This document shows, one piece after another, positions 31,584-46,632 of a stretch of 64,000 nucleotides of DNA. The position numbers and the translations under genes are program-made. Positions within the stretch are counted from its first letter, which is position 1, and each line of letters begins with the position of its first letter. Origin of the DNA: Candidatus Omnitrophota bacterium (lineage in GTDB: Bacteria > Omnitrophota > Gorgyraeia > Zapsychrales > Fredricksoniimonadaceae); NCBI GenBank assembly GCA_903908245.1, contig CAIVRE010000002.1:26761-90760 (forward strand), read 5' to 3'. Under the pieces are notes generated by a model. It saw only the letters and a list, made by a program, of their open reading frames with translations, was not told the origin of the DNA and did not search any database.

Positions 31584-33284
31584 TTACTCATCCGATACGA
31601 TACGCAACACTTCCTCAATGGTCGTCTGCCCCTGCGCCAGGCGCTCGACCGCGTCATCCCAAAGAACGCGAAGGGTCTTCTGTGCGCGGGCATAATCCTT
31701 GATATCGTCCGAAGACTTCCCCTGCAGGAGCATTTCACGCACCGCATCGTCCATGACCAGGATCTCGGTCACCGCGAACCGGCCGCGATACCCCGTATGC
31801 CGGCAATGGTCACAGCCTTTCCCGGCGTAAAACCTGGTCTTGGGATCCAGGGCCCCCTCGAACTTCTTTAACGCTTCCGCCGGAACTTCGATCTCATGCT
31901 TGCAATGCGGGCATATCTTGCGGGCCAGGCGCTGCGCGCAAACCAGGACCAGGCTGGAAGCGACCAGGAACGGCTCCACATCCATGTCGACCAGCCGCGT
32001 CAACGCGCCGGCGGCGTCGTTCGTATGCAAAGTGGAGAAAACAAGCTGCCCGGTCAGGGACGCTTTGATGGCGATATCCGCGGTCTCGTTATCACGGATC
32101 TCGCCCACCATCACGATATCCGGGCTCTGCCGCAAAATGGAACGCAGGGCGGCGGCGAACGTCAGCCCGATATCCGAGCGGACCTCGATCTGCGTCAGCC
32201 CGTCCACCAGGTACTCGACCGGATCCTCGACTGTAATGATATTCTTGTCAAGGCTGTTCAACTGGTTAATGATCGAATAAAGGGTTGTCGACTTCCCGCT
32301 CCCTGTCGGGCCTGTCACCAGGATCATGCCGAACGGCTTGACGATCCCTTCCTGAACAAGCTTGAGCGAATGATCGGACAATCCCAGCTGCCCGAGGCCG
32401 ACCGAAAGGTTCGCCTTGTCCAATAAACGCATCACGACCTTCGGGCCGTAACTGGTCGGAAGGATGGACACGCGGAAATCCACTTCCTTGCCCAGCATCC
32501 TCATCTTGAACCGCCCGTCCTGGGGGATCTGGGTGACCGTGATATCCATCCGCGACATGATCTTGATCCGCACCAGGACCGCGCTCTGGCTCTCGCGCGG
32601 GATCTCAAGCACATCGATCAGGACCCCGTCCACGCGATAACGGACGCGCATATTCCCCTCGGTCGATTCCATGTGCACATCCGACGCCCGCTGGTGCAGC
32701 GCCTCCTTGAGCACCAGGTTCACCATGCGGATCACAGGCGCCTGCTCGCTGCCGTCAATATCGGCGGCATCTTCCGCCTTGACATCGGTAATGATCTCGA
32801 AATCACCCACATCGATATTCTTGCTGATCTCGGATACCGACCCCTGGTCCGCCCCGCCGTAAAAACGGTCGACCGCTTCCTTGATCTGGGACGGTGCCGC
32901 CATCACCACATCGATCTTCTTTCCCGTCAGGTCCCGCAAGTCATCCAGGGCAAAAACATTGAGCGGATCGCCGAGGGCGACCGTCAGGCTGGTCCCGAGC
33001 GTGGCAATAGGAATAAGGTTATACTGCCGCGCCAGGCGCTCCGGGACCTCCTCTTTCAGGCGCGGGTCCAGTTTAAAACGCCGAAGGTCGACTGAAGGGA
33101 TCTTGAGCTCGCGCACCAAAAGCAGGACAAGGTCTTTCTCGGGGATGATCCCTTTCTGCACGACCGCCTCGGCGAAAGGGATATTCGTTGCCCGCTGGAA
33201 TTCCAGCGCGGCATCGACCGCCTGACGGTCAATGCCCGGCAGCTGAAGAAGCGCGTCAATAATGCGTTCACGGACATTCGCCAT
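31584..33284 (-). CDS. pilB: type IV pilus assembly ATPase PilB (GspE family), paralog 1
   Basis: N-terminal T2SSE_N domain, Walker A (GPTGSGKSTTLYS) and tetracysteine motifs CPHC...CDHC. Confidence 0.85.
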   Translation of the reverse strand: MANVRERIIDALLQLPGIDRQAVDAALEFQRATNIPFAEAVVQKGIIPEKDLVLLLVRELKIPSVDLRRFKLDPRLKEEVPERLARQYNLIPIATLGTSLTVALGDPLNVFALDDLRDLTGKKIDVVMAAPSQIKEAVDRFYGGADQGSVSEISKNIDVGDFEIITDVKAEDAADIDGSEQAPVIRMVNLVLKEALHQRASDVHMESTEGNMRVRYRVDGVLIDVLEIPRESQSAVLVRIKIMSRMDITVTQIPQDGRFKMRMLGKEVDFRVSILPTSYGPKVVMRLLDKANLSVGLGQLGLSDHSLKLVQEGIVKPFGMILVTGPTGSGKSTTLYSIINQLNSLDKNIITVEDPVEYLVDGLTQIEVRSDIGLTFAAALRSILRQSPDIVMVGEIRDNETADIAIKASLTGQLVFSTLHTNDAAGALTRLVDMDVEPFLVASSLVLVCAQRLARKICPHCKHEIEVPAEALKKFEGALDPKTRFYAGKGCDHCRHTGYRGRFAVTEILVMDDAVREMLLQGKSSDDIKDYARAQKTLRVLWDDAVERLAQGQTTIEEVLRIVSDE

Positions 33285-33287
33285 AGC

Positions 33288-35012
33288 CTATTTCTCGTCC
33301 TGCGCGGTAACGCGCACGACCTCCTCAAGTGATGTCAGGCCTTTGGCCGCCTTGGCCAATGCATCCTCGCGCATCGTACGCATCCCCTCGGCACGGCCCG
33401 CGGACTTGATCTGGATCTCACCGGCCCTCGCGAGGATAAGTTTCTTTACCCCCAAAGACATCGGCAGGACTTCATGGATGCCTACGCGCCCGGAATAGCC
33501 GGACTTCAGGCACTGCACGCACCCTTTCCCGTGATAAAATGTCAAATCCTTGCCCGGGATGATCTTCCCGATATTCAGCTTGTTATAAAGCGTCTCGGAA
33601 ATGGTCACAGGTTCCTTGCAGCTGGGGCAAATGCGGCGCACCAACCGCTGCGCCACCAGGCAATTGACCGCGGAACAGATCAGAAAAGGCTCGATCCCCA
33701 TATTGACCATACGCACAACAGACCCGGACGCCGTCGTGGTATGCAAAGAACTGACCACCAGGTGCCCCGTGAGCGCGGCCTTGATCCCGATATCCAACGT
33801 TTCGGAATCACGGATCTCGCCGATCATGATCACATCCGGGTCCTGGCGCAGGATCGACCGCAGCGTCGCGGAGAACGTCAGGCCGACCTCATAACGGATA
33901 TTGACCTGGTTAAGGCCCTTCATCTGATACTCAACAGGGTCCTCGACGGTCACGATATTCTTACCCGGAGAATCGATATGCCGAAGGATGGAATAAAGCG
34001 TTGTGGTCTTTCCCGAACCCGTTGGGCCGCAGATCAAGATCAATCCGTGCGGACGGTCACAAGCCTCCTTGAGCCGGGCCAGCGGACCGGCTTCGATACC
34101 GAGCTTTTCGATATCCACCCGGCCCTGGTTCTTGTCCAGGACACGCAAGACCACCTTCTCTCCGTAAACCGTCGGCAGGACGCTCACGCGGAAATCCACT
34201 TCCTTGCCGCCTTCCAGGACAGATTTAAAACGGCCGTCCTGTGGCAAACGATGCTCGGAAATATCCAGGTTCGACACAACCTTGATCCGCGACACGATCG
34301 GAAAATGCAATGCCTTGGACATACGGTCGATCTCCCGCAGGACGCCATCAACGCGATAACGGATCCGCAAGCTCTTTTCCAGCGGCTCAATGAACACATC
34401 ACTGGCTTTGGCGGCAACAGCCTGACGGACGATCGTATTCGCCAGGCGGATAATAGGCGCTTCCTGCGTAATGCTCTCGATCTCTTTCGCGTCGAACTTT
34501 TCACCGCCCTCATGGATCAGTTCCACTTCCTCGGCGTCCTTAATATCGCGCAGGATCTTGTCAAAAGACTCGTCCGGCTTCGGAGCGGTATACTGCTCGA
34601 TCGCGTCCTGGATATCTTTCGGGCGCCCGATAATAGGAGTGATCGTAAGCCCCGTGAGCGCCTTCACATTATCGATCGCGAAAATGTTGAGCGGGTCCGC
34701 CATGGCCAATGACAGATTGTCTCCGATGCGCGACACCGGAAGGATGCGGTATTTTCTCAGGATCTCCACCGGAAGGAGATTAACAACGGCAAGATCGATC
34801 TTAAGACGGGAAATGTTGATCACCGGAAGATGCAGCCCCTCGCTCAAAAGGAACGCGAGCTGCTCCTCATCAATAAGGCCCATCCGCACGAGGATCTTGC
34901 TCAACTCCCCGCCGGTAGTATCCTGCTCCTGGATCGCGCGGCCAAGATCCTCTGAACTCAGGATCCCGTCACGGAGCAAAATAGCCTTGATCCGTTCTTT
35001 GAATGTCGGCAT
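33288..35012 (-). CDS. GspE/PilB-family secretion ATPase, paralog 2
   Basis: N-terminal T2SSE_N domain, Walker A (GPTGSGKTTTLYS) and tetracysteine motifs CPSC...CVQC. Confidence 0.85.
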   Translation of the reverse strand: MPTFKERIKAILLRDGILSSEDLGRAIQEQDTTGGELSKILVRMGLIDEEQLAFLLSEGLHLPVINISRLKIDLAVVNLLPVEILRKYRILPVSRIGDNLSLAMADPLNIFAIDNVKALTGLTITPIIGRPKDIQDAIEQYTAPKPDESFDKILRDIKDAEEVELIHEGGEKFDAKEIESITQEAPIIRLANTIVRQAVAAKASDVFIEPLEKSLRIRYRVDGVLREIDRMSKALHFPIVSRIKVVSNLDISEHRLPQDGRFKSVLEGGKEVDFRVSVLPTVYGEKVVLRVLDKNQGRVDIEKLGIEAGPLARLKEACDRPHGLILICGPTGSGKTTTLYSILRHIDSPGKNIVTVEDPVEYQMKGLNQVNIRYEVGLTFSATLRSILRQDPDVIMIGEIRDSETLDIGIKAALTGHLVVSSLHTTTASGSVVRMVNMGIEPFLICSAVNCLVAQRLVRRICPSCKEPVTISETLYNKLNIGKIIPGKDLTFYHGKGCVQCLKSGYSGRVGIHEVLPMSLGVKKLILARAGEIQIKSAGRAEGMRTMREDALAKAAKGLTSLEEVVRVTAQDEK

Positions 35013-35461
35013 TAATCCCCGCTGTAATATCTTTTAATGGCGTTACGAATATCCGTCGTGGTGCTCACAAACGCCTGCACGGTACACCCGGTCAGAAGCT
35101 CAACATTTTCCACCGCCTTCATATTAAGCGGATTTGACATTGCCAACGTCAGGCTCTTGCCGATCTTGTCGATCGGGATCAGGCAGAACTGCTCGCATAC
35201 ATTCCCCGGGACAGACCTGGCCACGTCGGCATCGATCTCGTAATTGGCCAAAGGCAAATAAGGGAACCCGTACTGGCATGTCAATGCCTGGGCAATATCC
35301 TCTTCCGTGGCAAGTCCCAGCTGGATCAGGGCCTCACCGAAAAGGACTCCGGCATGAGAATGCTGGAACTCAAGGGCTTTTTCCAGATGATCGCGCGCAA
35401 TAAGCCCGCGTTCCACCAGAAGCTCACCCAAATGTTTATTGGAAGACCGTTCGTATCGCAT
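35012..35461 (-). CDS. stand-alone MshEN/T2SSE_N-domain protein
   Basis: 149 aa with HLGELLVERGLIARDHLEKALEFQ. Its stop overlaps the PilB paralog 2 start as TAATG. Confidence 0.65.
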   Translation of the reverse strand: MRYERSSNKHLGELLVERGLIARDHLEKALEFQHSHAGVLFGEALIQLGLATEEDIAQALTCQYGFPYLPLANYEIDADVARSVPGNVCEQFCLIPIDKIGKSLTLAMSNPLNMKAVENVELLTGCTVQAFVSTTTDIRNAIKRYYSGD

Positions 35462-35657: not shown

Positions 35658-36761
35658 TTAAGCCGACCGCTTGGAACTCAAGTTCAGGAGTATCCCGATG
35701 AGCACGGCAAAGACCATGAACGATGTGCGCCCATAACTGATAAGGGGCAGTGTAATACCTACCACCGGGCTCAGGCCGATGGTCATGCTGATATTGATCA
35801 CGACCTGCAGGGCCAGGATGCTGACAACACCGATCGCCATCATATGCCCAAAACGATCCTTCACTCGTTCGGCGATCTGCAACCCTGTCCAGATCAGCAT
35901 AAAATAACAGACCAAAAGAAAGACCGCCCCCAGAAAGCCCCACTCCTCGCCGATCACAGAAAAAATGAAATCCGTATGCCGCTCCGGCAGAAAATTCAAC
36001 TGGTTCTGCGTACCCGCCAGCCAACCCTTGCCGAACATCTGCCCGGATCCTACCGCGATCCTCGATTGAATGATCGTATACCCGGCCCCCAGGGGATCAG
36101 CGTTCGGATTCATAAAAACCAGGATGCGGTCCCGCTGATAATCCTTCAGAAAATGCCAGCCAACCGGAACCAGGGCCGTACAAGCGCCCAGAAAGATCCC
36201 GAACGGCCGCATCTCCTCACCCGAAGCGTAAACCATCACAATAAAGATCCCGAGCACCAGAAGGGCCGTGCCCAGATCCGGTTGTTTAAAGATCAGTGCA
36301 AAACTGATGAGTACAAGAATGAAAGGGAACAGCAGGTCCTGACAGGCAGCGCGCATGGCCCCCCGCACACTGAAAGAAAACCTTTCGTTGCTGGAACTGA
36401 AATACCGCGCCAGCATCACGATGACCGCAAGCTTCGAAAGCTCTGAGGGCTGGAAAGAGAAAAACCCCATGTTGAACCAGCGCGTGGCCCCCAACGCCGA
36501 ACGGCCGGAAAAAAGGACCGCCAGCAGGAGCACAACGCTTAAGCCATAGATCACATACGCGCTATCATAAAAGAACCGGTAGCTCACACGGCTTAAGATG
36601 AACATCACGCCCAGGGCCATCAACGACCAGATCAGCTGGTCAAAGAACACCTGGCGGGTCACGCGGACATTCTCGTAGGTCGCACTGTAAAGCGCGATCA
36701 GCCCGACCGCGATAATAAATATGGTAAACACCCATATGGTGCGGGTCTCGGCGTTGCTCAT
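35658..36761 (-). CDS. rodA: FtsW/RodA/SpoVE-family peptidoglycan glycosyltransferase
   Basis: Ten-transmembrane-helix SEDS-family sequence. The start was taken at MSNAETRTIW, forming an ATGA overlap with the upstream small ORF. Confidence 0.8.
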   Translation of the reverse strand: MSNAETRTIWVFTIFIIAVGLIALYSATYENVRVTRQVFFDQLIWSLMALGVMFILSRVSYRFFYDSAYVIYGLSVVLLLAVLFSGRSALGATRWFNMGFFSFQPSELSKLAVIVMLARYFSSSNERFSFSVRGAMRAACQDLLFPFILVLISFALIFKQPDLGTALLVLGIFIVMVYASGEEMRPFGIFLGACTALVPVGWHFLKDYQRDRILVFMNPNADPLGAGYTIIQSRIAVGSGQMFGKGWLAGTQNQLNFLPERHTDFIFSVIGEEWGFLGAVFLLVCYFMLIWTGLQIAERVKDRFGHMMAIGVVSILALQVVINISMTIGLSPVVGITLPLISYGRTSFMVFAVLIGILLNLSSKRSA

Positions 36762-36991
36762 TTCCCGTTCTTCACCCACGGCCACGGGCATTGATATTTA
36801 CAGGCGATCTCGGGATACGGCGTTTTCACGCGCTTGAGGCACGCGGCCTTGCAGCGAAAATTATCCGCGACCGGGACCAGGATGAACATCGCCAGGATAA
36901 CGATCAAAAAGATCTTCCTCTGCCGGTCGGACAACAACGGTTTTTTTGGATCCGGCGCCTGCCTTGTTTTACTGTTATTCTTCTTTCCCAT
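36758..36991 (-). CDS. small membrane peptide with Cys-rich extracytoplasmic tail
   Basis: 77 aa: a K/R-rich N-terminus, one transmembrane helix (IFLIVILAMFILVPVA), then CKAACLKRVKTPYPEIACKYQCPWPW. A Shine-Dalgarno AGGGGGA lies 9 nt upstream. Its stop overlaps the rodA start. Confidence 0.45.
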   Translation of the reverse strand: MGKKNNSKTRQAPDPKKPLLSDRQRKIFLIVILAMFILVPVADNFRCKAACLKRVKTPYPEIACKYQCPWPWVKNGK

Positions 36992-37005
36992 ACTTTTATT
37001 TCCCC

Positions 37006-38514
37006 CTATTTCTTCTCTCCGAAAACGTCCGCGGTAAACACCTCGATCCGGGTCCCGGGCTGCTTCCAACAATCCAGCGCAAGGCCGGCCTTCTGCGCAC
37101 AAAGCTCGGACAAGAACCGCTCTTTGGTCCAACCCGTCTCCGTCGCGACCTGCGGCAGGAAAACACCGCGATTAAAATACCCGCGCGAAACGATAACCCC
37201 GTGCTTCCCCAGCTGGATCTCGTCGACACTCCCGATCACCCTCGGTTGGGACAAAACCGAGATCTCGATATCAATATCCTTGAGCTCCCCGGCGCTGACA
37301 GGCGGGAACCGGGGGTCCTGCGAAGCCGCGGCCACACCCATATCGCGCACCGTCCGGTACAGCGGCCCCTGGCCGATAATATTGCCGATACACCCGCGCA
37401 ACTGCCCGTGCGCATGCAGCGTCACGAACGCACCTTCTTCCGCGTTCAAACGGGGGTCTTTCTCCTCAACCTCTGCCGCCTTGCCATCACGCACAAAAGA
37501 CTCGACTGTCCCACGGGCGATCGCAAGCAAACGCGCCCGCTGAGCCTCGTTCAACACACTGCCCGCAATTCCTGCCTCCGCCACGGCAGATGCCGTATCT
37601 TTATAAAAAATGACCGACGCATACCCTACCACCCGGTCTTTATCCCCGGTAGTGTCCGCCGATGTCGCGTATTTCAAAACTTTTGCTTTCCCGAACCCCT
37701 GTGCCTTCGCATACAACATGGCCGCCGTGACCACATGAAAACCGTCAACCTCCATCGACCCGTCCCGATGGCCCTGCCACAGGGCTTCCACATCCATCGA
37801 CTCGATCGCCTTCAAGCCCCGGCCATCGATCTCATGCGCCTGCGCCTCGGTATGAAAATGAGACTGATCCACGCTCACGTCAACAAGGACATCATCACGC
37901 TTACCGACCGCCAGGGCCAAGGCATCCGCCATTGAACGCAACACATCCGCATCCGGCGGATAGCCCAGGATGACCGGGACGATCCTGGCCCCGGGGAAAG
38001 CGCGCTGGACCATCGGCAGCTGTGTTTCCACCGAATTCTCCGGCTGGCCCGGAGCGCCCTCAAAGACATCCTTACGAAAAGTAAATCGCTTGTCAAAAGA
38101 CAGTATCCTGGCCGCAAGATCCGTATCAACCTCGATCCTCCCGAGCGGCGTTTCAAAAGCCCCTTGCGCCCAGACAGAAGCACCGGAAAATGAAAAATGA
38201 TGGCTCGGGGCAAGAATAATGACCGTCGACACCTTCCGGGCAGATGCGGCCTTGAAGCCGTAGGCCGCCACAGGCGCCGAGAAAACATACCCCGCATGAG
38301 GAGAAATAAGAACGCCGATGCTTTTGCCTGCCGGCTCCTGGGCCAACGCCCCGGACGCTGTGGCAAGAAAACCATCGACCATCCGGGAAAGCTCGGCGGG
38401 TTGCCCCGGATACCAGCTTCCCGCCAATCCGGCAGTCTTGATATTATTATCGGCAAAGGAAGGCCTGCTCATGATGCACAACCCCAAAAAGGCCAGCAAG
38501 AGTTTAACCCGCAT
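37006..38514 (-). CDS. secreted MEMO1-like / AMMECR1 fusion protein
   Basis: Sec signal peptide MRVKLLLAFLGLCIMSRPSFA. Memo motifs: AGSWYP, SPHAGY and APSHH. The C-terminal AMMECR1 domain carries LRGCIG. Confidence 0.75.
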   Translation of the reverse strand: MRVKLLLAFLGLCIMSRPSFADNNIKTAGLAGSWYPGQPAELSRMVDGFLATASGALAQEPAGKSIGVLISPHAGYVFSAPVAAYGFKAASARKVSTVIILAPSHHFSFSGASVWAQGAFETPLGRIEVDTDLAARILSFDKRFTFRKDVFEGAPGQPENSVETQLPMVQRAFPGARIVPVILGYPPDADVLRSMADALALAVGKRDDVLVDVSVDQSHFHTEAQAHEIDGRGLKAIESMDVEALWQGHRDGSMEVDGFHVVTAAMLYAKAQGFGKAKVLKYATSADTTGDKDRVVGYASVIFYKDTASAVAEAGIAGSVLNEAQRARLLAIARGTVESFVRDGKAAEVEEKDPRLNAEEGAFVTLHAHGQLRGCIGNIIGQGPLYRTVRDMGVAAASQDPRFPPVSAGELKDIDIEISVLSQPRVIGSVDEIQLGKHGVIVSRGYFNRGVFLPQVATETGWTKERFLSELCAQKAGLALDCWKQPGTRIEVFTADVFGEKK

Positions 38515-38551
38515 AATACATCACCCTATCAACGCTTCAAGGCCATCAGCC

Positions 38552-38998
38552 TCAGGAACCGGCCCGGGCATAAAGCCCGTCGATCGAGAACAGGGATGTC
38601 CTCTTGATATTGGCCAGGCATAACAATGTCAATACAATGACCGAAAGATCGACCAGGAGGACCCCGCGCAACGGGATATGGATAAGCTCACCAAAACACC
38701 CGCAGCTGTCTAACGGAAGTTGGCGAACGATCGCCTGGCTAACGATCCCGGCCAGGGATACCGACATTAAGAACAACACAACGAACGCCTGCCTGAGCCA
38801 GAGCCCCAGCAGGATGAACACCCCCACCAGTAATTCGACCCACGGGAACACCAGCGCGACCGCCGGCTCAAAACCTGTAGGGATCACCTTATACCCGTCG
38901 ATCACATACAGAAAATTCTCCATCGGGCTCAGGACTTTCTCCCCGCCGGAGATAATAAAGAGAACGCCTAAAATGATCCGGATCATAACAAACATATC
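38552..38998 (-). CDS. MauE/DoxX-family membrane protein
   Basis: Four transmembrane helices with a CGCFG motif. The start was taken at MFVMIRIILGV and overlaps the dsbA stop. Confidence 0.6.
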   Translation of the reverse strand, partial: DMFVMIRIILGVLFIISGGEKVLSPMENFLYVIDGYKVIPTGFEPAVALVFPWVELLVGVFILLGLWLRQAFVVLFLMSVSLAGIVSQAIVRQLPLDSCGCFGELIHIPLRGVLLVDLSVIVLTLLCLANIKRTSLFSIDGLYARAGS

Positions 38999-39626
38999 AC
39001 TTCCCCGCCGGTCCAAGGATCTTTTCAACCTCTTGCGCCATAAATGTCCCCCCGACAACACGCTTGCCGTTGACAAAGAAAGTCGGAGTCGAATTCACAT
39101 CCAGGGTTTTCCCTTCCTCCAGGTCTTTCTTGACCCTGCGCTCCGCATCAACGCTGTTGACGCACGCGGTCAGGCGCACACCATCAAGCCCGAGCGAAAC
39201 CGCCAATTCCGTAAAATACGCATCGACCGAAAACATCTCCGCCCAGCTTTTCTGGCTCTTGAAAAGCGCATCTTCCAACGGCCAGAATTTCCCCTGGTCA
39301 GCAGCGCATTCGGCAAAAATAGATGCCCGTGTTGCATGAGCATGCCGGGGCAGCGGAAAATGCTTGTGTTCCAGACATATCCTGCCTTCATAGCGGATGA
39401 ACAGGTCCTTGAGAAGTCCGTTCGCAGCGGCACAAGCGGGGCATTCAAAATCCGTGTATTCCACGATCTTGACCGGAGCGGATGGCTCCCCCCTGATCCG
39501 GCCCTGCTGATGGATGTCGATCTTCACATGCCCGGGGGCCTTGACAATACAGAACTTGTACACGCTCAAAGCGCCGATCACCAATAACACCAGAAGACCG
39601 GACAACACCTGTCGGGATATGATCAT
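38997..39626 (-). CDS. DsbA-family thiol:disulfide oxidoreductase, membrane-anchored
   Basis: N-terminal transmembrane anchor and a CPAC thioredoxin active site. Confidence 0.8.
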   Translation of the reverse strand: MIISRQVLSGLLVLLVIGALSVYKFCIVKAPGHVKIDIHQQGRIRGEPSAPVKIVEYTDFECPACAAANGLLKDLFIRYEGRICLEHKHFPLPRHAHATRASIFAECAADQGKFWPLEDALFKSQKSWAEMFSVDAYFTELAVSLGLDGVRLTACVNSVDAERRVKKDLEEGKTLDVNSTPTFFVNGKRVVGGTFMAQEVEKILGPAGK

Positions 39627-39663: not shown

Positions 39664-40020
39664 TCAGATATATTTCCTGATCTTATCAAGAAGCTCCTGA
39701 TGCGGGAAAGGCTTGATAACATACTCCTGCACCCCCTCGGCCATAAAAATATCGACCAGCTCGGGTTTACAGGTAAGGACAATGATCGGTGTTTTTACGA
39801 CCCCTTCGATCTTGCGCATCGCAAAAAGAAAGGCGTATCCGTTAACCTTGGGCATCACCACATCGAGGATGATCAGGTCGGGATGCTCGACCTCGAGCTT
39901 CTGCAAAGCCTCATCGCCGTCATTAGCCACAACAACATCAAACCCGTGTTCCCCGAGATAACTGCCGAGCAAACGGGTCAAAGTCGGATCATCATCCGCG
40001 ATCAAAACCTTCTTGCCCAT
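39664..40020 (-). CDS. single-domain response regulator (CheY-like receiver)
   Basis: Contains DDD, a phospho-acceptor D in LDVVMP, a T in VLT and a K in IKPF. Confidence 0.8.
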   Translation of the reverse strand: MGKKVLIADDDPTLTRLLGSYLGEHGFDVVVANDGDEALQKLEVEHPDLIILDVVMPKVNGYAFLFAMRKIEGVVKTPIIVLTCKPELVDIFMAEGVQEYVIKPFPHQELLDKIRKYI

Positions 40021-40620
40021 TTAATACCTCTTTAAATGCCCCATCGTCAACTCGAGGACCATGCGCTTTTCATCACGGATGAAAACGGCCATCTCGTGCT
40101 TGAATCCTTCCTCGGAATGGAACTCGACCCCGTTCAGCGGAGAATTCACGAACGTGGTGAAATGTCCCATCTCAAGATGGCTATAACCGTGCCCGGAAAG
40201 CTCTTTCACAAAATATCCCGCGATCAGGTTTGTTACGGTCCCGCAGGCGTCCAGGGTCTCTTCCTCATCATCCTCGTCAATACGGCCATAATCCAGCAGC
40301 CACATCAAGCGCGCGATAAAATCTTCCGGGATATAAACGATAAGAGCCCCGATAGCCTTTTCATGGCCCATATGCTCTTTATCAATATAAAAATTCAACA
40401 CCGCGATCAGCGTGCGGCCGTTGAACTTCTCCAGCCCGTCGATACGCATCCGGTGGGCGAACTGGACGATCTCTTTCTCGCAAACATCAGGGTCTTTGGA
40501 AAGATGGATATCGCCCTTCTGGATGAGCATCTTCTTGACAGAAGACACAAGAATGGACGAAAGGGAAAAAAGCTCCTGATTGCTGCCGTCAAAATAAAGC
40601 GTAGGCTTAAAGTTGGACAT
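40021..40620 (-). CDS. CheX/CheC-like protein (putative CheY-P phosphatase)
   Basis: GTVTNLIAGYF resembles the CheX E-x2-N-x-TAG block. It sits between two receiver genes. This is a weak call. Confidence 0.35.
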   Translation of the reverse strand: MSNFKPTLYFDGSNQELFSLSSILVSSVKKMLIQKGDIHLSKDPDVCEKEIVQFAHRMRIDGLEKFNGRTLIAVLNFYIDKEHMGHEKAIGALIVYIPEDFIARLMWLLDYGRIDEDDEEETLDACGTVTNLIAGYFVKELSGHGYSHLEMGHFTTFVNSPLNGVEFHSEEGFKHEMAVFIRDEKRMVLELTMGHLKRY

Positions 40621-40993
40621 ACGGCTTGATGACCGCCAGGACTTCATCAGGTTTATACGGTTTGATCACATATCCGACGAGTTTCGGATTGACCGCATAA
40701 GCCGCTTTCTTGCTCTCTTCCGCGGCTGACGCCGTAACCATCACAATGGGGATCTGGGACGTTGCCGGCACTTTTACCAGACCTTCCATCAATTCGAGCC
40801 CCGACATGTTCGGCATCTGATAATCACAGAACATAAGGCAGATCTCGCCAAGATGCTCGGCAATAACACCCAGAGCGGTCTCACCGTTATCCGCCTGAAG
40901 GATCTCGTTCTTGACGCCCGAATTCAGCAAAGTCTTCGACAAGAGCTTGCGGTCGAGCAAAGAATCATCAACGATCAGGATCTTCATGCCCAC
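40607..40993 (-). CDS. single-domain response regulator (CheY-like receiver)
   Basis: VDDS, CDYQMPNMSG, VTA and VIKPY positions are consistent with a receiver fold. Confidence 0.8.
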   Translation of the reverse strand: MGMKILIVDDSLLDRKLLSKTLLNSGVKNEILQADNGETALGVIAEHLGEICLMFCDYQMPNMSGLELMEGLVKVPATSQIPIVMVTASAAEESKKAAYAVNPKLVGYVIKPYKPDEVLAVIKPYVQL

Positions 40994-41306: not shown

Positions 41307-42581
41307 TTAACGGCGGCTGCGGGTGACCAGAAAATATGTCTGGCCGGCTGAACAGTCGATCTCGCCCAGGTCCTCCGCCCCGTTCACTGTCATATCCTCC
41401 GACAAATGCTCAAAACGCAAATGGTACTTGCCCGGATCAAGGCTCAGGCGCGCGACCCGTATTTCAGCCGGGAGAGCCTGCCAGCTGCGCAGATCCGCCC
41501 GCTCCGAATATATATTATATAAACTGCTCATCAGCCCGAAAAGCCCGGCCGCGGGCGACCCGAACTTCTTCTGGATATTCTCCTGCTGTTTGCGTTCCAC
41601 CAGATACTTGAGCGCCGGCCGGATGACAGCTTTGGCAAGAGCAGCCGCCTTGCGGGACTCCAGGTCTTTCATCGCCAGATCATCAATGCTCACCCCCAGC
41701 TCGGTGACTGCCTGCACTTTTACCCCGCCGGGCCCCTCCGCTGTCAGCAAACCGTTGCGCGTCGCGGAATACCGCCTGACGAACCTCGGGAAAGCCACCT
41801 GCGCTACCAACCCCCGTTCAAGAGGGACAGGGATGATCTGGGATTCCTTTACCGGAGAAAACCCGGCGGACTGCAGCACATAGACCACCGCTTTCGCATC
41901 AGCGCCGCCCCATCCATTGAGCGCCTTCAAACGGTCTTTAAGGACCTGGGGCTCATACATCCCGCCGTAATATTGCGAATACATCTCTTCGGCCTGCCGA
42001 TAAAAGATCCGGGCGTTATCACGGTCATCCGCCCTGGCCGAAGCCTCGTTCACAAACCCCATGAACATCCGGGCGAACCCGTTATCCTCAAAACGCCGGC
42101 GTTTGGCCGCCAGCGCCTGCCGTTCAACCACCTGGTATTTGGAATCCAGGTCACGCGCCTCCACCAGAGCCTCGTTCACATTGCCTGACGACAAATAATT
42201 CAGGGACTGGAACACATTGACCAGGACATATTCATAATCAGCCCCGCGATACGGCAGGGCATAATCATTCCCCATCCAGCTGACCGCTTCCTTGGAGAGT
42301 GACTGTGTATACAACTCCTCGAAACGGCGCTTGGCCTTGTCAAAACTTTGGATACTTTGCGGGTAAAGCCCGGCGTAATGCTCCACCAGGCCGCGGTCGA
42401 GATAATAGAGCAGGTAATTGCCCTGGCCATAGTCGGACGCTTCGGCCTCTATCTTCTCGGCGGCGCCCTTGATGTCCCCGGCCATTACACGGCGGTTGAT
42501 CTCGGGCTGAAGCGCCGGCCCGTTAAAGGCCGCGCAGGAAGAAACGAACAGCAGCAAAGGAAAGAAGAAACAACGGTTCAA
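41307..42581 (-). CDS. lipoprotein, function unknown
   Basis: Lipobox LFVSSC and 424 aa. It overlaps the downstream LpoB-like gene. Confidence 0.5.
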   Translation of the reverse strand: MNRCFFFPLLLFVSSCAAFNGPALQPEINRRVMAGDIKGAAEKIEAEASDYGQGNYLLYYLDRGLVEHYAGLYPQSIQSFDKAKRRFEELYTQSLSKEAVSWMGNDYALPYRGADYEYVLVNVFQSLNYLSSGNVNEALVEARDLDSKYQVVERQALAAKRRRFEDNGFARMFMGFVNEASARADDRDNARIFYRQAEEMYSQYYGGMYEPQVLKDRLKALNGWGGADAKAVVYVLQSAGFSPVKESQIIPVPLERGLVAQVAFPRFVRRYSATRNGLLTAEGPGGVKVQAVTELGVSIDDLAMKDLESRKAAALAKAVIRPALKYLVERKQQENIQKKFGSPAAGLFGLMSSLYNIYSERADLRSWQALPAEIRVARLSLDPGKYHLRFEHLSEDMTVNGAEDLGEIDCSAGQTYFLVTRSRR

Positions 42582-43174
42582 ATGGAATATTGCGGACGCT
42601 TGACCAGCTTCTTGATCTTCTTCTGGCCGATCCAGACTTTTTCATTGGTGGTCATATTGACCAGCTCCAGGTTGACCTGGAACAGGATCGCGTACTCGCC
42701 CTTAATCTCGTCTTTAACGGAATTGATCGACCCCTGAAGCATAAAATCCGCGCCCTTTTCCTGCACCATGGCCGCACGGGTCTCGGGTGCGGCATTCTGC
42801 AGCTGATCGACACGTTCGGCGCGCACTTCCCCGCGCTCCGAAGAAGCCGCCACGAACTTTACTTTACCGGCATTGACCAGCGCCTGCTCGAGGTCCTGGA
42901 CAAAAACCATCGCGTCAATATGCTCGTTGCTACGGTTGCTTACAGTCCCGACAATGACAACCGGATCACGCCCTTTTTCCTTGTTGAAATTGGAAAGCCA
43001 GGCGGTCTCCAGGCAGCCCTTGACCATTTCTTCCGCGGTCATACGCGCATCCGTATCATTCCACCGGCCCGAAAGATCGACCACCTCTTTTGGCTCCTTG
43101 CGGATGACCTCCGTCGCACAACCCGATAAGGCCAATCCCGCCAGGACCAGCGCCACCCAATATGCTTTTCTCAT
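42578..43174 (-). CDS. LpoB-like lipoprotein
   Basis: Lipobox LALSGC. The segment VVIVGTVSNRSNEHIDAMVFVQDLEQALVNAGKVKFV resembles the E. coli LpoB core (LLVDSVNNRTNGSLN...NNGKFTLV). Confidence 0.5.
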   Translation of the reverse strand: MRKAYWVALVLAGLALSGCATEVIRKEPKEVVDLSGRWNDTDARMTAEEMVKGCLETAWLSNFNKEKGRDPVVIVGTVSNRSNEHIDAMVFVQDLEQALVNAGKVKFVAASSERGEVRAERVDQLQNAAPETRAAMVQEKGADFMLQGSINSVKDEIKGEYAILFQVNLELVNMTTNEKVWIGQKKIKKLVKRPQYSI

Positions 43175-43178
43175 AAGA

Positions 43179-43655
43179 TCACTCCGTTACGATGATCCCG
43201 CTCTTGAAATCGGCGGTGATCGTTTCCAGCGCAGCCCTGGCCTCGTCTTCCGTGACATAAGACCCGGCACGCACCCGATACCATACCCCGCGCGCACCAA
43301 GGTCGCTGACCATGATATAAGCCTTATATCCTTTGGCCTTCAGTTTTTCCAGTGCCGATTCGGCGCGGGCCTTGTCTTTGAACGAATAGACCTGGACAGC
43401 AAAAGATTCTTTGGAGGAAAGGACCTGGGGCGCCATAACGACCGACGACGAAGGCTTAACGGCAGCAACCGCTGCCTGGTCGGCTTCGGTATGAGCAGGC
43501 TTGATCCCGGAAGGCTGCGCCTTTTCAGCCAACACATCCTGCACTGACGCCTTGACCGGCGACTTGTCTTTCGAAAAAGACATCACGCCGAACACCGCCG
43601 CCACCACCACCAAAAGAACGATGAGCCAAATTTCACTTCCTTTTCCACCAGCCAT
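43179..43655 (-). CDS. SPOR-domain protein
   Basis: Transmembrane anchor plus a C-terminal SPOR domain (FAVQVYSFKDKARAESALEKLKAKGYKAYI). The start was preferred at MAGGKG, which has GGAGG upstream; the longer ORF begins at 43667. Confidence 0.7.
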   Translation of the reverse strand: MAGGKGSEIWLIVLLVVVAAVFGVMSFSKDKSPVKASVQDVLAEKAQPSGIKPAHTEADQAAVAAVKPSSSVVMAPQVLSSKESFAVQVYSFKDKARAESALEKLKAKGYKAYIMVSDLGARGVWYRVRAGSYVTEDEARAALETITADFKSGIIVTE

Positions 43656-43674
43656 ATAAGCCTCCATAATTAGG

Positions 43675-43736
43675 GGGACACAATACTTAATTCATTAATT
43701 TATTTGATTATATAATGAATTAAGTATTGTGTCCCC
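43675..43736. repeat. AT-rich perfect inverted repeat, family A/B copy 2
   Basis: GGGGACACAATACTTAATTCATTA and TAATGAATTAAGTATTGTGTCCCC are perfect complements. The unit sits between the exonuclease stop and the SPOR gene ribosome-binding site. Confidence 0.8.
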
Positions 43737-43747
43737 ATATTTCTATT

Positions 43748-44566
43748 TCAATGTTTTTCAACAATAGATACAACCGACGGCTCGAATTTCGGGAACTGGC
43801 CTTTAAGCACAGCCTGGACCAGCCCCTTGGCCTCTTCGCTGAAATCCTTGCCCAGCATCCACTCCAGATAACCCGGGTCTTTTCTCGCGATCTCGCGCAG
43901 GCTCTCCTTGCGCGCGTATTTGCCGAACATCATATACAGCTCGCCGTTCCACCAGCGGAATTTCCTCTCGCTGTCATAAAAATCACTGCGCTCCGGATAA
44001 ACGAACTTCGCAAGGACTGAAACGCTGTCACTGCCTTCGCCATAACTCCTAACCTGCGCCTCCAAGACCTCAAGCGTCGCCGCAGTATCCGCCAGGGCGG
44101 AATGCGCGCCCTCCAGCGGCTTGCCGCAATAAAAAGAATACGCGGCGGTCAGGTCCCTTTTATTATTAAGGTGAAAAACTTTCTGCGCGTCATACACGAT
44201 CCGGTCTGTCATCGTAAAAGTCACGCCGGCATCAACAAATTCACGCTCGAGCAAAGGCACGTCGAACTTGTCCACATTAAATCCGCCGATATCCGCATCC
44301 CCGATAAAGGCCTGGACCTCTTTTGCGATCGTCTTGAACACCGGAGCGTCTTGCACCATTTCATCCGTAATACCGGTCAACTCCTGCACGACTTTAGGAA
44401 TAGGCATCAGAGGGTTGACCCGCTTGTGATAGGTCTCTTTCCCCCCCGACGGGAGGACCTTGATCATGGCGATCTCGATAATGCGGTCTTTCTCGATCCA
44501 GATCCCCGTCGTCTCAAGGTCAAGGATGACCAGCGGCTTGACAACATTCATAAGGAACCCTTTCAA
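43748..44566 (-). CDS. DEDDh 3'-5' exonuclease (DnaQ-like) with C-terminal extension
   Basis: LVILDLETTG (Exo I), Exo II/III blocks including HSALADTAATLEV, and about 90 aa of C-terminal extension. Confidence 0.75.
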   Translation of the reverse strand: MKGFLMNVVKPLVILDLETTGIWIEKDRIIEIAMIKVLPSGGKETYHKRVNPLMPIPKVVQELTGITDEMVQDAPVFKTIAKEVQAFIGDADIGGFNVDKFDVPLLEREFVDAGVTFTMTDRIVYDAQKVFHLNNKRDLTAAYSFYCGKPLEGAHSALADTAATLEVLEAQVRSYGEGSDSVSVLAKFVYPERSDFYDSERKFRWWNGELYMMFGKYARKESLREIARKDPGYLEWMLGKDFSEEAKGLVQAVLKGQFPKFEPSVVSIVEKH

Positions 44567-45220
44567 TTAATCCAGCTGGGATTCGAGTTCCCGGAAAAGT
44601 TCATCGGTCTTCTTCATGACATCCGCCTTGACCATCTTGAGCGTTTCCGCGTCTTTCTTGAAAGAACGGATCGCGTTGAGGAACCGGCGCAAAGAAGCGA
44701 TATTGCGCAACTCACGCTCTTCAGCCGGGTCAACCTGCTTGCGCTCCTTGATCATCGAGGTCAGGTCCTTGCGCACCAGAGCCGCGTTGCACCCCTTGTC
44801 GAAGACCTGCTTGCGCAATTCCGACAGGTCCTGCTTGGTAAGCTCCTTGCGGTTCCTGGCCAAACGAAGGACATTGATCGCGTCGAGCTCCGGCAGGGCG
44901 GAAGGCTCGTGCGCCTCCATATATTCGCTCTTGAGGTACGCAGGCTCCTGCTGTTCAACGAACTGATAGGTCTTGACCAGTTTGAGCGCCATCGGCTTCT
45001 TGATGCCCAGTTCGCGCTCGGCGTACTGCTCGAACTTCTCATAGCCCCAGTATTCATAAAGCTTGTCCTGCCAGATCGAATGCAAGACCTGCGCCAAAGC
45101 GACCCAGGACGCCTTGAAATCCTTTGTCCCCCCGGCGGCACGGACACGAAGTTCCTTGCTCGTGGGATTATCCATCTTCTTGAGTTTACTGATCCGTTCT
45201 TCCTGGTCGATAACAGACAT
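44567..45220 (-). CDS. hypothetical protein
   Basis: 217 aa, charged and helical, with no recognisable motif. It abuts the exonuclease gene. Confidence 0.4.
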   Translation of the reverse strand: MSVIDQEERISKLKKMDNPTSKELRVRAAGGTKDFKASWVALAQVLHSIWQDKLYEYWGYEKFEQYAERELGIKKPMALKLVKTYQFVEQQEPAYLKSEYMEAHEPSALPELDAINVLRLARNRKELTKQDLSELRKQVFDKGCNAALVRKDLTSMIKERKQVDPAEERELRNIASLRRFLNAIRSFKKDAETLKMVKADVMKKTDELFRELESQLD

Positions 45221-45221
45221 A

Positions 45222-46082
45222 TTACATTTTCTCCATCTTTATCTTCTTGAATTCCGCCAGTACTTTGGCCCTGGTGATCCCTCCGGGAATATCTGCGCCG
45301 ACATTCGCCGTTCCCGCCGCCGCCGCCGATCGCAAGGCATCCTGGAACGACGCTCCGCGCATATGCCCGGCCAGGAACCCCGCCAAAGACGCGTCCCCGC
45401 AGCCAACCGTCACCCCTGCGCAACGCGGTCCACGCGCCAGGAACATATTCTGCCCGTCAAAACCCGCCAGACCGTCTTCATCGAGTGATAACAGGACTCT
45501 TGTCATACCATATCCCGCCAGCATTTGCAAAGCCTTCCTGACAGCACGGGTTGACCTGATCTTGAAACCGAAAAAGTCTTGCGCCTCTTCACGATTAGGC
45601 TTAACACACCACGGCCCGGCCTTAACACCTTTTGCCAAAGGGATCCCGCTCGAATCAAGCACCGTCAGTATTCCCTTACAGCGCGCCGCCCTGATCAGGC
45701 GGGCATAAATATCGTCCGGAGCGCCCGGAGGGATACTGCCGCACAGCGCCAGCACACGGGCGCCGTCCAAATGCCGCACGATAAAACCTTCAACCTTTTT
45801 CCAGTCCCCGGCCGATAAATACGGCCCCGGCTCGATAAAACGGGTACAGCTCCCGGCAAGATCAACAACGGTCGTGTTCACCCGGACCTTAACCGCCGGG
45901 ACCGTATCCTTCAGCGTCAACGAAAGCGCCTTCACGCCCAGGGCTGTCAACGCCCTTGCCAGGTTCACGCCTTTGCCGCCATCAGCCGAACGCACCCCGC
46001 GGGCACGCATCTCTGCCCCAGGGATCAATTGATCCACAAGGATCGTCCGGTCAATGGAAGGATTTAAGGTAATGATCAACAT
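45222..46082 (-). CDS. PfkB-family carbohydrate kinase
   Basis: Ribokinase-like fold with GGKGVN near the N-terminus and a C-terminal GAGD-like motif (GCGDASLAG). Confidence 0.75.
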   Translation of the reverse strand: MLIITLNPSIDRTILVDQLIPGAEMRARGVRSADGGKGVNLARALTALGVKALSLTLKDTVPAVKVRVNTTVVDLAGSCTRFIEPGPYLSAGDWKKVEGFIVRHLDGARVLALCGSIPPGAPDDIYARLIRAARCKGILTVLDSSGIPLAKGVKAGPWCVKPNREEAQDFFGFKIRSTRAVRKALQMLAGYGMTRVLLSLDEDGLAGFDGQNMFLARGPRCAGVTVGCGDASLAGFLAGHMRGASFQDALRSAAAAGTANVGADIPGGITRAKVLAEFKKIKMEKM

Positions 46083-46090
46083 AAATGATA

Positions 46091-46122
46091 AACCTCCTTC
46101 ATCCCGGGGATGAAGGAGGTTT
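46091..46122. repeat. GC-rich palindromic element containing the kinase Shine-Dalgarno (CCCCGGGG family, copy 2)
   Basis: AACCTCCTTCATCCCGGGGATGAAGGAGGTT. On the minus strand GAAGGAGG sits 10 nt upstream of the kinase ATG and is paired within the stem. Confidence 0.7.
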
Positions 46123-46146
46123 AATTACAACTGCAAAATAAACAAA

Positions 46147-46632
46147 TTACTCGGTAATGTACTGCTTCATCTCCGACCAGGTCTTCTGTCCGATAACCCC
46201 GTCTGCCTTAAGATTATGCTTCCTCTGGAACTCCACGACCGCGGCCTTGGTCTTCGGGCCGATCCTTCCGTCGATCTTGCCCTCATAAAGCCCGGCGCCT
46301 TTAAGCGCTTTCTGGACTTCGGCAGGCGCAACCGCCACACGAATAAGCCCTTCCACATCATTCGATGAGGCCGACGAAGAAGACTTGACCGATGAAGACG
46401 ATGGTGCAGAGGCCTCAACCACTGCCGGCTGCTGTTTATCGTCCAGCTTGCCGGTGATCTCCTTGACCTCGTATTTCAGGTCCACGATCTCTTTTTCCTG
46501 CTCTTCCATGCGCTGTTCGAGGTCGACCACCTGGTTCTGGACCTGATTAATAGGCGCAACCTTGGCCTGGGTCGTAGCACATCCGGCCAGAGCCACAACA
46601 CCGATCAAAACAAATAATAAACGAACGTTCAC
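46147..46632 (-). CDS. lipoprotein with C-terminal peptidoglycan-binding domain
   Basis: Lipobox LAGC, a coiled segment, then a PG_binding_1-like C-terminus (GKIDGRIGPKTKAAVVEFQRKHNLKADGVIGQKTW). Confidence 0.7.
   Translation of the reverse strand: MNVRLLFVLIGVVALAGCATTQAKVAPINQVQNQVVDLEQRMEEQEKEIVDLKYEVKEITGKLDDKQQPAVVEASAPSSSSVKSSSSASSNDVEGLIRVAVAPAEVQKALKGAGLYEGKIDGRIGPKTKAAVVEFQRKHNLKADGVIGQKTWSEMKQYITE

Follow-up and report, generated by a model that had tools for sequence, protein, structure and literature searches.

A candidate envelope redox and maturation locus of an Omnitrophota bacterium, with an exported Memo-AMMECR1 fusion next to a DsbA-MauE pair and RodA

Here we describe five adjacent genes on a 64,000-nt stretch of DNA (contig CAIVRE010000002.1) from a Candidatus Omnitrophota bacterium. 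We refer to the whole stretch as the window, and all coordinates are window positions. According to the list of open reading frames (ORFs), the genes lie on the minus strand and encode, in this order, a DsbA-like protein, MauE, a fusion of a Memo and an AMMECR1 domain, a 77-aa protein and RodA (Table 1). An initial annotation of this DNA, made from the sequence alone, had described the five ORFs accurately. Judging from the sequences, we put the probability that they form an envelope redox and maturation gene string at roughly one half. With the exception of the small protein, the parts of the locus belong to known families. It is the arrangement, the remodelled metal site of the fusion and the general export of such fusions that are new.

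The exported Memo-AMMECR1 fusion and its metal site

Conservation of MEMO1 and AMMECR1 extends from archaea to humans, and both have been connected with disease. The vestigial active site of MEMO1 binds a phosphotyrosine peptide, and we know of no reaction catalysed by either protein. In the window fusion Pfam places the Memo domain at residues 29-301 and the AMMECR1 domain at residues 331-498. The scores of the more specific profiles are far above their cut-offs, i.e. 224 bits versus 26 for TIGR04336 (AmrB) and 175 bits versus 99 for TIGR04335 (AmrA), so that the two-domain architecture suggested by the initial annotation is confirmed. The AlphaFold2 model is confident (pLDDT 94). Foldseek gave TM scores of 0.8 to MEMO1 and of 0.75 to archaeal AMMECR1-like proteins, and PH0010 and MM0484 match the AMMECR1 domain at 1e-19; LigB-class extradiol dioxygenases rank after the AMMECR1-like structures and MEMO1.

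Residues H73, H105, D216, H219 and E255 of the Memo domain are invariant in the alignment, and so are LRGCIG (C375) and DPRF (D400, R402, F403) of the AMMECR1 domain. The RGChG and DxR-aromatic motifs have been proposed as the active site of AMMECR1 (Balaji & Aravind 2007), and the sequence strongly supports that these catalytic motifs are intact in the fusion. The same authors had already noted fusions of AMMECR1 with a dioxygenase-like gene as well as a linkage to a radical S-adenosylmethionine (SAM) enzyme, and they proposed RNA-base modification for the bacterial system, which is the main published prediction (Balaji & Aravind 2007). In a 2026 survey AMMECR1 was the strongest Pfam marker of anaerobes, so caution is needed in assuming an O2-dependent dioxygenase chemistry. 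The AMMECR1 domain also contains a pair of cysteines, C472 and C482. Most exported members of the clade have Cys482, which is replaced by Ser in the cytoplasmic copies found in Smithellaceae.

Signal peptides were judged by a hydrophobicity rule (n-h-c architecture and a small-x-small cleavage site) and by their conservation. The signal peptide of the window fusion has S and A at positions -3 and -1 and no twin-arginine motif. With this heuristic a clear signal peptide was found in 79 of the 117 evaluable homologs among the top 120, and one Omnitrophota call that appeared to be short (L036) was found on checking to extend upstream into a full signal peptide. These two results dispose of the worry that the N-terminus might be a start-codon miscall, and the conservation of the Sec signal peptide supports the export that had been predicted for the fusion. 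Scanning metagenome contigs with the family alignment gave 80 further fused relatives at 30-49% identity; a signal or lipoprotein peptide is present in 51 of the 65 with an evaluable N-terminus, many of them with a lipobox. In other words, export is usual among the sampled fused relatives and is not, as had been supposed, a peculiarity of the window locus. The sequences thus strongly support that the window fusion is a Sec-exported member of a large and mostly exported group of Memo-AMMECR1 fusions. A literature search for AMMECR1 together with the periplasm returned nothing relevant, and neither did one for the function of the AmmeMemoRadiSam system; exported forms may figure in Burroughs et al. 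2019 (JBC).

The signal peptide is genuinely absent only in the Smithellaceae copies (64-67% identity), in which the hydrophobic core is lost and an in-frame stop and AGGAGG stand directly before MxxxSFAD. A start miscall was considered for these copies and is ruled out by the in-frame stops and by the AGGAGG site directly upstream. The Smithellaceae copies (L011-L016, L018 and L033) belong to the D257/H260 subtype described below, keep an 'SFAD' remnant and occur in variable contexts, e.g. beside a type I restriction system. They resemble genes that were transferred out of the Omnitrophota lineage and then re-adapted to the cytoplasm. One of them, L033, lies divergent to a PBP1A gene; a link of the fusion to class A penicillin-binding proteins was considered on this ground and rejected, as the arrangement occurs in one genome only.

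For the analysis of the metal site the window clade was aligned to AmrS-linked and other distant fusions, and MEMO1 was placed by profile alignment. It is conspicuous that the column of the metal-binding Cys244 of MEMO1 is occupied in the window protein by Asp257, which is followed by His260 (MEVDGFH). D257 and H260 are found in every homolog that is at least 56% identical to the window fusion. All 61 distant fusions, and likewise the Omnitrophota subclade at 49-53% identity, have Cys at position 257. The D257/H260 set matches exactly the exported fusions that precede the small gene and RodA, plus the Smithellaceae transfers, and an innermost group is marked by a further His-to-Asn change (ENSVE). 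This clade-specific change at the Cys244 position is newly recognised here. It would mean that the thiol ligand of the Memo metal site was swapped in the window clade for an Asp and a new His, and such a swap fits what may be expected of a metal site that works next to a strong thiol oxidase.

The third component of the AmmeMemoRadiSam system is the radical SAM protein AmrS. In the 64-kb window there is no real ORF with a CxxxCxxC motif and no match to the AmrS profile, in agreement with the initial annotation, which had seen no radical SAM partner there. Among the distant fusions, AmrS (NCBIfam TIGR04337, 381 and 400 bits; PflA-like) is the dominant neighbour family. The AmrS profile places it beside the fusion in 31 metagenome loci and in the Elusimicrobia genome locus L031, and nearly all evaluable AmrS-linked fusions bear a signal peptide. 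Examples of an exported fusion directly beside AmrS are L058:4751-7377, L071:4612-7392 and L108:3513-6314, within a set of loci that ranges from L047 to L123. The fusion can thus be periplasmic and still be coupled to AmrS, and the earlier argument against a radical SAM partner for a periplasmic fusion is contradicted by most of the 31 AmrS-linked loci. Purely by analogy with sulfatase maturation, AmrS would do its work prior to export or on a precursor. In the approximately 30 related loci that are linked to DsbA-MauE or belong to Smithellaceae, the AmrS profile found no AmrS. A membrane-bound spermidine-synthase-like protein (PF01564; 'fused MFS/spermidine synthase'-like) adjoins the fusion in 19 metagenome loci, and its gene is mostly located just downstream on the same strand, e.g. 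L093:2023-4677.

The distribution of AmrS raises the question whether the periplasmic DsbA-MauE pair takes over the maturation step that AmrS carries out on the fusion, or on its substrate, in other phyla. The situation would be comparable to the two alternative formylglycine routes in sulfatases. The two neighbourhoods are almost mutually exclusive: the 31 AmrS-linked loci have no DsbA neighbour and have MauE nearby only in the L067/L084 lineage, and no AmrS lies within 6-10 kb in at least 25 loci linked to DsbA-MauE. Moreover, AmrS resembles protein-activating radical SAM enzymes (matches to PflA and NrdG), and the metal-site Cys is universal where AmrS is present and replaced in the window clade. 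However, the subclade at 47-52% identity keeps Cys257 and is also without a neighbouring AmrS, and some 14 distant loci are adjoined by neither partner despite ample flanking sequence. AmrS has no known chemistry, and as the negative results cover the loci only, it could be encoded elsewhere in these genomes. We consider a replacement of this kind very improbable.

The DsbA-MauE pair and the twin-CX3C protein

The DsbA-like protein has a CPAC active site, the cis-Pro motif TPTF and an N-terminal transmembrane anchor, and its gene lies upstream of MauE in 25 Omnitrophota-type loci. MauE contains a CGCFG motif (DSCGCFGE) and a Glu-Lys pair in its first transmembrane helix. In a recent preprint, MauE proteins from two phyla (Caldithrix and Desulfatibacillum) restored motility and PhoA activity in an E. 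coli dsbB mutant (Gonzalez et al., bioRxiv 10.64898/2026.03.05.709764). It is for these proteins that replacement of DsbB and dependence on quinone have been shown. The CXC motif, which is typically followed by F-G, was essential in MauE, a Lys and a Glu are conserved in the first helices, and MauE was judged a generalist and not a methylamine-specific factor (bioRxiv 10.64898/2026.03.05.709764). The window MauE is a member of PF07291, has a CXC motif followed by F-G and adjoins a thioredoxin-fold CXXC partner, the DsbA-like protein with its CPAC site and N-terminal anchor, which is predicted to be exposed to the periplasm. Since the window MauE fits the features given in the preprint, the reading of the two proteins as a pair is well founded. 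The sequences strongly support DsbA and MauE as a disulfide-forming pair that would be independent of DsbB; what the initial annotation called plausible has been strengthened by the matching motifs and by the replacement of DsbB by MauE in E. coli. Omnitrophota, Memo and AMMECR1 are absent from the text of the preprint (bioRxiv 10.64898/2026.03.05.709764), and the present locus offers a first genomic client context for the newly reported MauE pathway.

The small protein has a basic N-terminus and the conserved motif LSDRQ(R/K)K; a single transmembrane helix leads to a tail with two CX3C motifs that is predicted to be periplasmic. It had no match in Pfam or NCBIfam, and its 61 close homologs are all named 'hypothetical' or are misnamed. 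The gene sits between the fusion and RodA in about 20 distinct genomes. Twenty columns of the alignment are invariant. They include S21, R23 and Q24 on the cytoplasmic side and, in the tail, the pattern R46-C-K-x2-C...T-P-Y-P-E-x-A-C-x-Y-x-C-P-W-x-W, so that both C47-x3-C51 and C64-x3-C68 are invariant among close homologs. In comparisons of the tail with 13 orthologs the proportion of synonymous differences (pS) is 0.53-0.86, i.e. synonymous sites are near saturation, and that of nonsynonymous differences (pN) is 0-0.11 in 12 of the 13 comparisons and 0.20 in one. As pS is far above pN, we conclude that the small gene is translated and strongly constrained. The ORF picked out by the initial annotation is thus a real gene, and the sequences strongly support a conserved bitopic membrane protein of a previously undescribed family. 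In the AlphaFold2 model a helix (residues 22-54) runs from the membrane into the first CX3C motif and is followed by a loop and a second helix (residues 60-65) with the second motif; the pLDDT of the tail is 64-77. The predicted layout is that of a disulfide-clamped hairpin.

A profile search of 1.84 billion representative proteins returned only 11 clusters related to the small protein. The distant members keep C-x3-C...PYPE(I/V)AC-x3-CP and lose the Trp residues, and two distant variants occur in contexts with neither the fusion nor RodA. The family is therefore a rare, undescribed extracytoplasmic module without a strict tie to the operon. In some distant members (P0186, P0187, P0191 and L041:5027-5794) an N-terminal zinc ribbon replaces the basic tail, and one is extended by further transmembrane helices at the C-terminus, with CorA and giant genes as its neighbours. 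These variants indicate that the twin-CX3C tail is a mobile domain. We also note that in L002 (8198-8724 and 10144-10504), which represents the same population as the window, MauE is split into two ORFs and the small gene is broken into two ORFs by undetermined bases, likely through an assembly error.

The twin-CX3C tail might itself be what the exported enzyme acts on, e.g. by oxidising or cross-linking Tyr or Trp, with DsbA-MauE setting the disulfides of the tail. This would parallel MauD/MauE and the Cys-rich subunit MauA with its Trp-derived cofactor. In its favour, the small gene always stands directly after the fusion and is found only with the D257/H260 subtype of exported fusion, and Y59, Y66, W70 and W72 do not vary among close homologs; Memo is a member of the aromatic-ring dioxygenase superfamily, and MEMO1 can bind a tyrosine-containing ligand, the phosphotyrosine peptide mentioned above. 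On the other side, the tail is nearly invariant and not variable, distant family members lose the Trp residues and occur without the fusion or RodA, no small gene occurs within 10 kb of the Smithellaceae fusions of the D257 type, such a peptide does not accompany dozens of exported fusions elsewhere, and no leader peptide, protease or exporter was found at the locus. Maturation of the tail as a peptide or cofactor is in our view quite improbable. The first three of these points likewise weigh against the alternative offered by the initial annotation, for which there is no positive support, i.e. a system resembling those of RiPPs, peptides made by ribosomal synthesis and modified post-translationally.

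In the reading that we prefer, the envelope redox and maturation string, DsbA would introduce disulfides into its clients and MauE would re-oxidise DsbA and pass the electrons to quinone. The twin-CX3C tail would be a local client, with disulfides C47-C68 and C51-C64 clamping the helix-loop-helix, and the C472-C482 pair of the AMMECR1 domain is a further probable client.

Gene order and the surrounding cell-wall region

The conservation of the gene order was investigated by extracting the ORFs of 28 genome loci and searching them with the window proteins. Twelve public contigs encode a protein with 100% identity to the fusion, and the nearest named relatives of the fusion come from metagenome-assembled genomes of Candidatus Omnitrophota. 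All Omnitrophota-type loci at 59-77% identity have the same order, i.e. response regulator, CheX-like protein, response regulator, DsbA, MauE, fusion, small ORF, RodA, MshEN protein and PilB, and the full order is also present in P0070 (55% identity) and L039. There are 20 distinct loci in which a D257-type fusion occurs together with MauE, the small gene and RodA, and with DsbA wherever upstream sequence exists; none of these 20 loci contains AmrS. In five loci at 47-52% identity (L035, L036, L037, L045 and L122) only DsbA-MauE-fusion persists, and the small gene and RodA are replaced. Linkage to the small gene and RodA is thus seen only in the clade that is at least 56% identical to the window fusion, and the DsbA-MauE-fusion trio recurs across Omnitrophota. 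Conserved gene order, on which the proposal of a functional module depended, is therefore present at both levels: five genes in the close relatives and three at 47-52% identity.

In three loci of the 47-52% subclade the fusion is followed by an unknown membrane protein of 150-200 aa and a DCC1-like thiol-disulfide oxidoreductase, which extends the thiol/quinone theme to the sister subclade. The DCC1-like protein bears an HTTM (vitamin-K-carboxylase-like) domain in L035:8501-10389 and L045:4397-6181, and L050:7403-9598 has DCC1 only. A comparison of the small protein with the genes that hold its place there, the 150-200-aa and HTTM/DCC1 ones, showed no similarity. One of the syntenic loci, L007 (DYOU01000025.1), is labelled 'Candidatus Elulimicrobium sp.' (Patescibacteria group). 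It agrees with the Omnitrophota loci in its 20 kb of synteny and its 70% identity, and may be mislabelled or mis-binned.

The genes are tightly packed. MauE starts 1 nt past the DsbA stop (TGAtATG), 37 nt separate MauE from the fusion, and the fusion stop is 14 nt from the start of the 77-aa ORF, an ATG preceded by the ribosome-binding site GGGGGA. Reading of the next junction verified the overlap noted by the initial annotation, in which the TGA stop of the small gene and the ATG of rodA share 4 nt as ATGA (36758-36761); the same overlap is repeated in L003, L004, L019 and L026. The longest ORF of rodA begins further upstream, at an ATG at 36791, which is an alternative to the ATGA-coupled start.

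Table 1. Features of the five-gene locus (window positions)
Feature	Position	Strand	Evidence
DsbA-like thiol:disulfide oxidoreductase, 209 aa, membrane-anchored	38997..39626	-	Pfam PF13462 7e-30, PF01323 2e-11
MauE/DoxX-family membrane protein, 147 aa from MFVMIRI	38552..38995	-	PF07291 2e-20
Memo-AMMECR1 fusion, 502 aa	37006..38514	-	PF01875 2e-53, PF01871 1e-53
Sec-type signal peptide of the fusion, MRVKLLLAFLGLCIMSRPSFA then D	38452..38514	-	n-h-c architecture kept in homologs
Memo (AmrB) domain, residues ~27-305	37600..38436	-	PF01875, TIGR04336
AMMECR1 (AmrA) domain, residues ~323-502	37009..37548	-	PF01871, TIGR04335
77-aa bitopic membrane protein, twin-CX3C tail RCKAACLKRVKTPYPEIACKYQCPWPW	36758..36991	-	homolog alignment, pS/pN
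RodA (SEDS peptidoglycan polymerase)	35658..36761, or start 36791	-	TIGR02210 397 bits, PF01098 2e-100

Could this order be nothing but inherited synteny, i.e. five unrelated envelope genes that happen to be adjacent in one lineage, with DsbA-MauE in general service and the small gene either associated with RodA or independent? Several observations count against the envelope redox and maturation string and, in part, for this explanation. The order from the response regulator to PilB is kept over about 20 kb in all close relatives, the whole region being syntenic. In L050 (49%) the order is DsbA-MauE, a 1063-aa gene, the fusion, three further genes and RodA-MshEN-PilB; part of the proximity to RodA may thus be old synteny, with unrelated genes inserted. 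'Candidatus Aceula meridiana' (49%) has an exported fusion without DsbA-MauE, small gene or RodA as neighbours, and the Smithellaceae fusions are without any of the partner genes. MauE has been described as a generalist (bioRxiv 10.64898/2026.03.05.709764), and DsbA-MauE may be a housekeeping oxidation system that lies here by chance. As to the proposed clients, the twin-CX3C tail could bind a metal instead of forming disulfides, C482 is Ala in some exported members, and both cysteines of the AMMECR1 pair are also found in cytoplasmic archaeal proteins.

Against mere inheritance, L038 keeps the exact DsbA-MauE-fusion-77aa-RodA block although both of its flanks are different, and the DsbA-MauE-fusion trio survives at 47-52% identity with varying flanks. 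In addition, the gaps between the genes are tiny or replaced by an overlap, and the C257D/H260 change and the presence of the small gene coincide exactly. We therefore regard inherited synteny as rather unlikely to be the whole explanation. The tie to cell-wall elongation through rodA that was proposed in the initial annotation holds in one subclade; elsewhere it does not, and the order in L050 points to a linkage that may be partly inherited.

RodA itself scores 397 bits against a TIGR02210 cut-off of 337, which supports an equivalog assignment. No gene for a PBP2-sized transpeptidase was found within 10 kb of rodA, i.e. the usual mrdA-rodA pairing is absent at the locus. The region downstream of RodA (31584-35461) encodes one stand-alone MshEN protein and two ATPases of the PilB/T2SSE type that contain MshEN domains. 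In the annotation of a matching contig these are followed by another MshEN protein, a T2SSF platform protein, a pilin and PilM, so this region is a type IV pilus block with several modules predicted to bind c-di-GMP. Just upstream of DsbA, on the same strand and 37 nt away, two single-domain response regulators (39664-40993) flank a weak CheX-like protein, an order that is kept in most relatives. Further upstream (41307-46632) are genes for a Gly-zipper lipoprotein, an unknown 424-aa lipoprotein, LpoB, a SPOR-domain protein and a PG_binding_1 protein. In view of these envelope genes the five-gene locus sits inside a larger cell-wall neighbourhood.

An Rfam scan for RNA elements that might delimit the operon gave no match. 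The number of terminator-like structures equalled the expectation from shuffled sequence, and no clear terminators or promoters were found that bound the operon. GC skew is negative in every 2-kb bin of the window and nearly all plausible genes are on the minus strand; the many long plus-strand ORFs are antisense artefacts of a coding strand with 53% GC.

Implications and comparison with known systems

The export signals on most of the sampled bacterial fusions argue for extracytoplasmic work, at least in this large branch of the family. As RNA, SAM and nucleotides are not available outside the cytoplasm, the search for a substrate narrows to envelope lipids, glycans and proteins. The target of the fusion is probably in the envelope, and the exported enzyme would act on one of these three kinds of molecules and not on RNA. 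The small protein, translationally coupled to RodA, would most likely partner RodA in the membrane or tether the enzyme to it. A broader proposal can be formulated: the fused B-A proteins would be extracytoplasmic envelope-modifying enzymes, and in the window clade, with its rebuilt metal site and with DsbA-MauE in the place of AmrS, the small protein would dock the enzyme to RodA and so couple a modification of lipid-linked precursors or peptidoglycan to elongation. In this full form the proposal is speculative, and we hold it to be clearly unlikely. Nevertheless, the Omnitrophota locus is a natural variant of the system, in that it has no neighbouring AmrS, a metal site free of thiol and a disulfide relay next door, and it adds an undescribed small protein family beside RodA.

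Compared with the AmmeMemoRadiSam system (TIGR04335 AmrA, TIGR04336 AmrB and TIGR04337 AmrS), both parts other than the radical SAM enzyme are present, fused in the order B-A, and the RGChG and DxR(aromatic) motifs of AMMECR1 are invariant in the window-type fusions. The differences are that AmrS is found neither in the 64-kb window nor in the related DsbA-MauE-linked loci, that the window fusion has a Sec signal peptide and an Asp with an added His at the position of MEMO1 C244, and that its neighbours are DsbA-MauE, the new small protein and RodA. MEMO1, AMMECR1 and the archaeal proteins PH0010, MM0484 and ST0229 share the folds of the fusion domains (Foldseek), and the two His ligands, the Asp/His pair and the cysteine of LRGCIG are conserved between them and the fusion. 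These proteins are, however, cytoplasmic and separate, whereas the window protein is fused, predicted to be exported and has Asp for the Cys244 ligand.

Two further systems resemble the locus and its relatives in the way they work. The anaerobic sulfatase-maturating enzyme (anSME), a cytoplasmic radical SAM enzyme, shows genetic coupling to sulfatases exported via Sec, which by analogy may explain the combination of AmrS and exported fusion in the relatives; AmrS, however, is PflA-like and not an anSME, and it is not found at the window locus. The small Tim proteins and the CHCH-type fold of the mitochondrial intermembrane space have two CX3C motifs on consecutive helices with a short loop between them and likewise reside in an oxidising compartment with a dedicated disulfide relay. 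The window domain differs in being bacterial, about 27 residues long and placed on a transmembrane helix; it has no sequence homology to these proteins, and its disulfides are predicted.

The closest parallel for the redox pair is the DsbA-MauE pathway together with MauD/MauE of the methylamine-utilisation clusters. What they have in common is a MauE whose predicted periplasmic loop bears CGC and then F-G and whose first helix contains Glu/Lys, with a thioredoxin-fold CXXC protein encoded alongside. Unlike the methylamine-utilisation clusters, the window locus has no methylamine dehydrogenase genes, and unlike in the published DsbA-MauE pathway, the window-type pair is conserved beside an exported Memo-AMMECR1 fusion.

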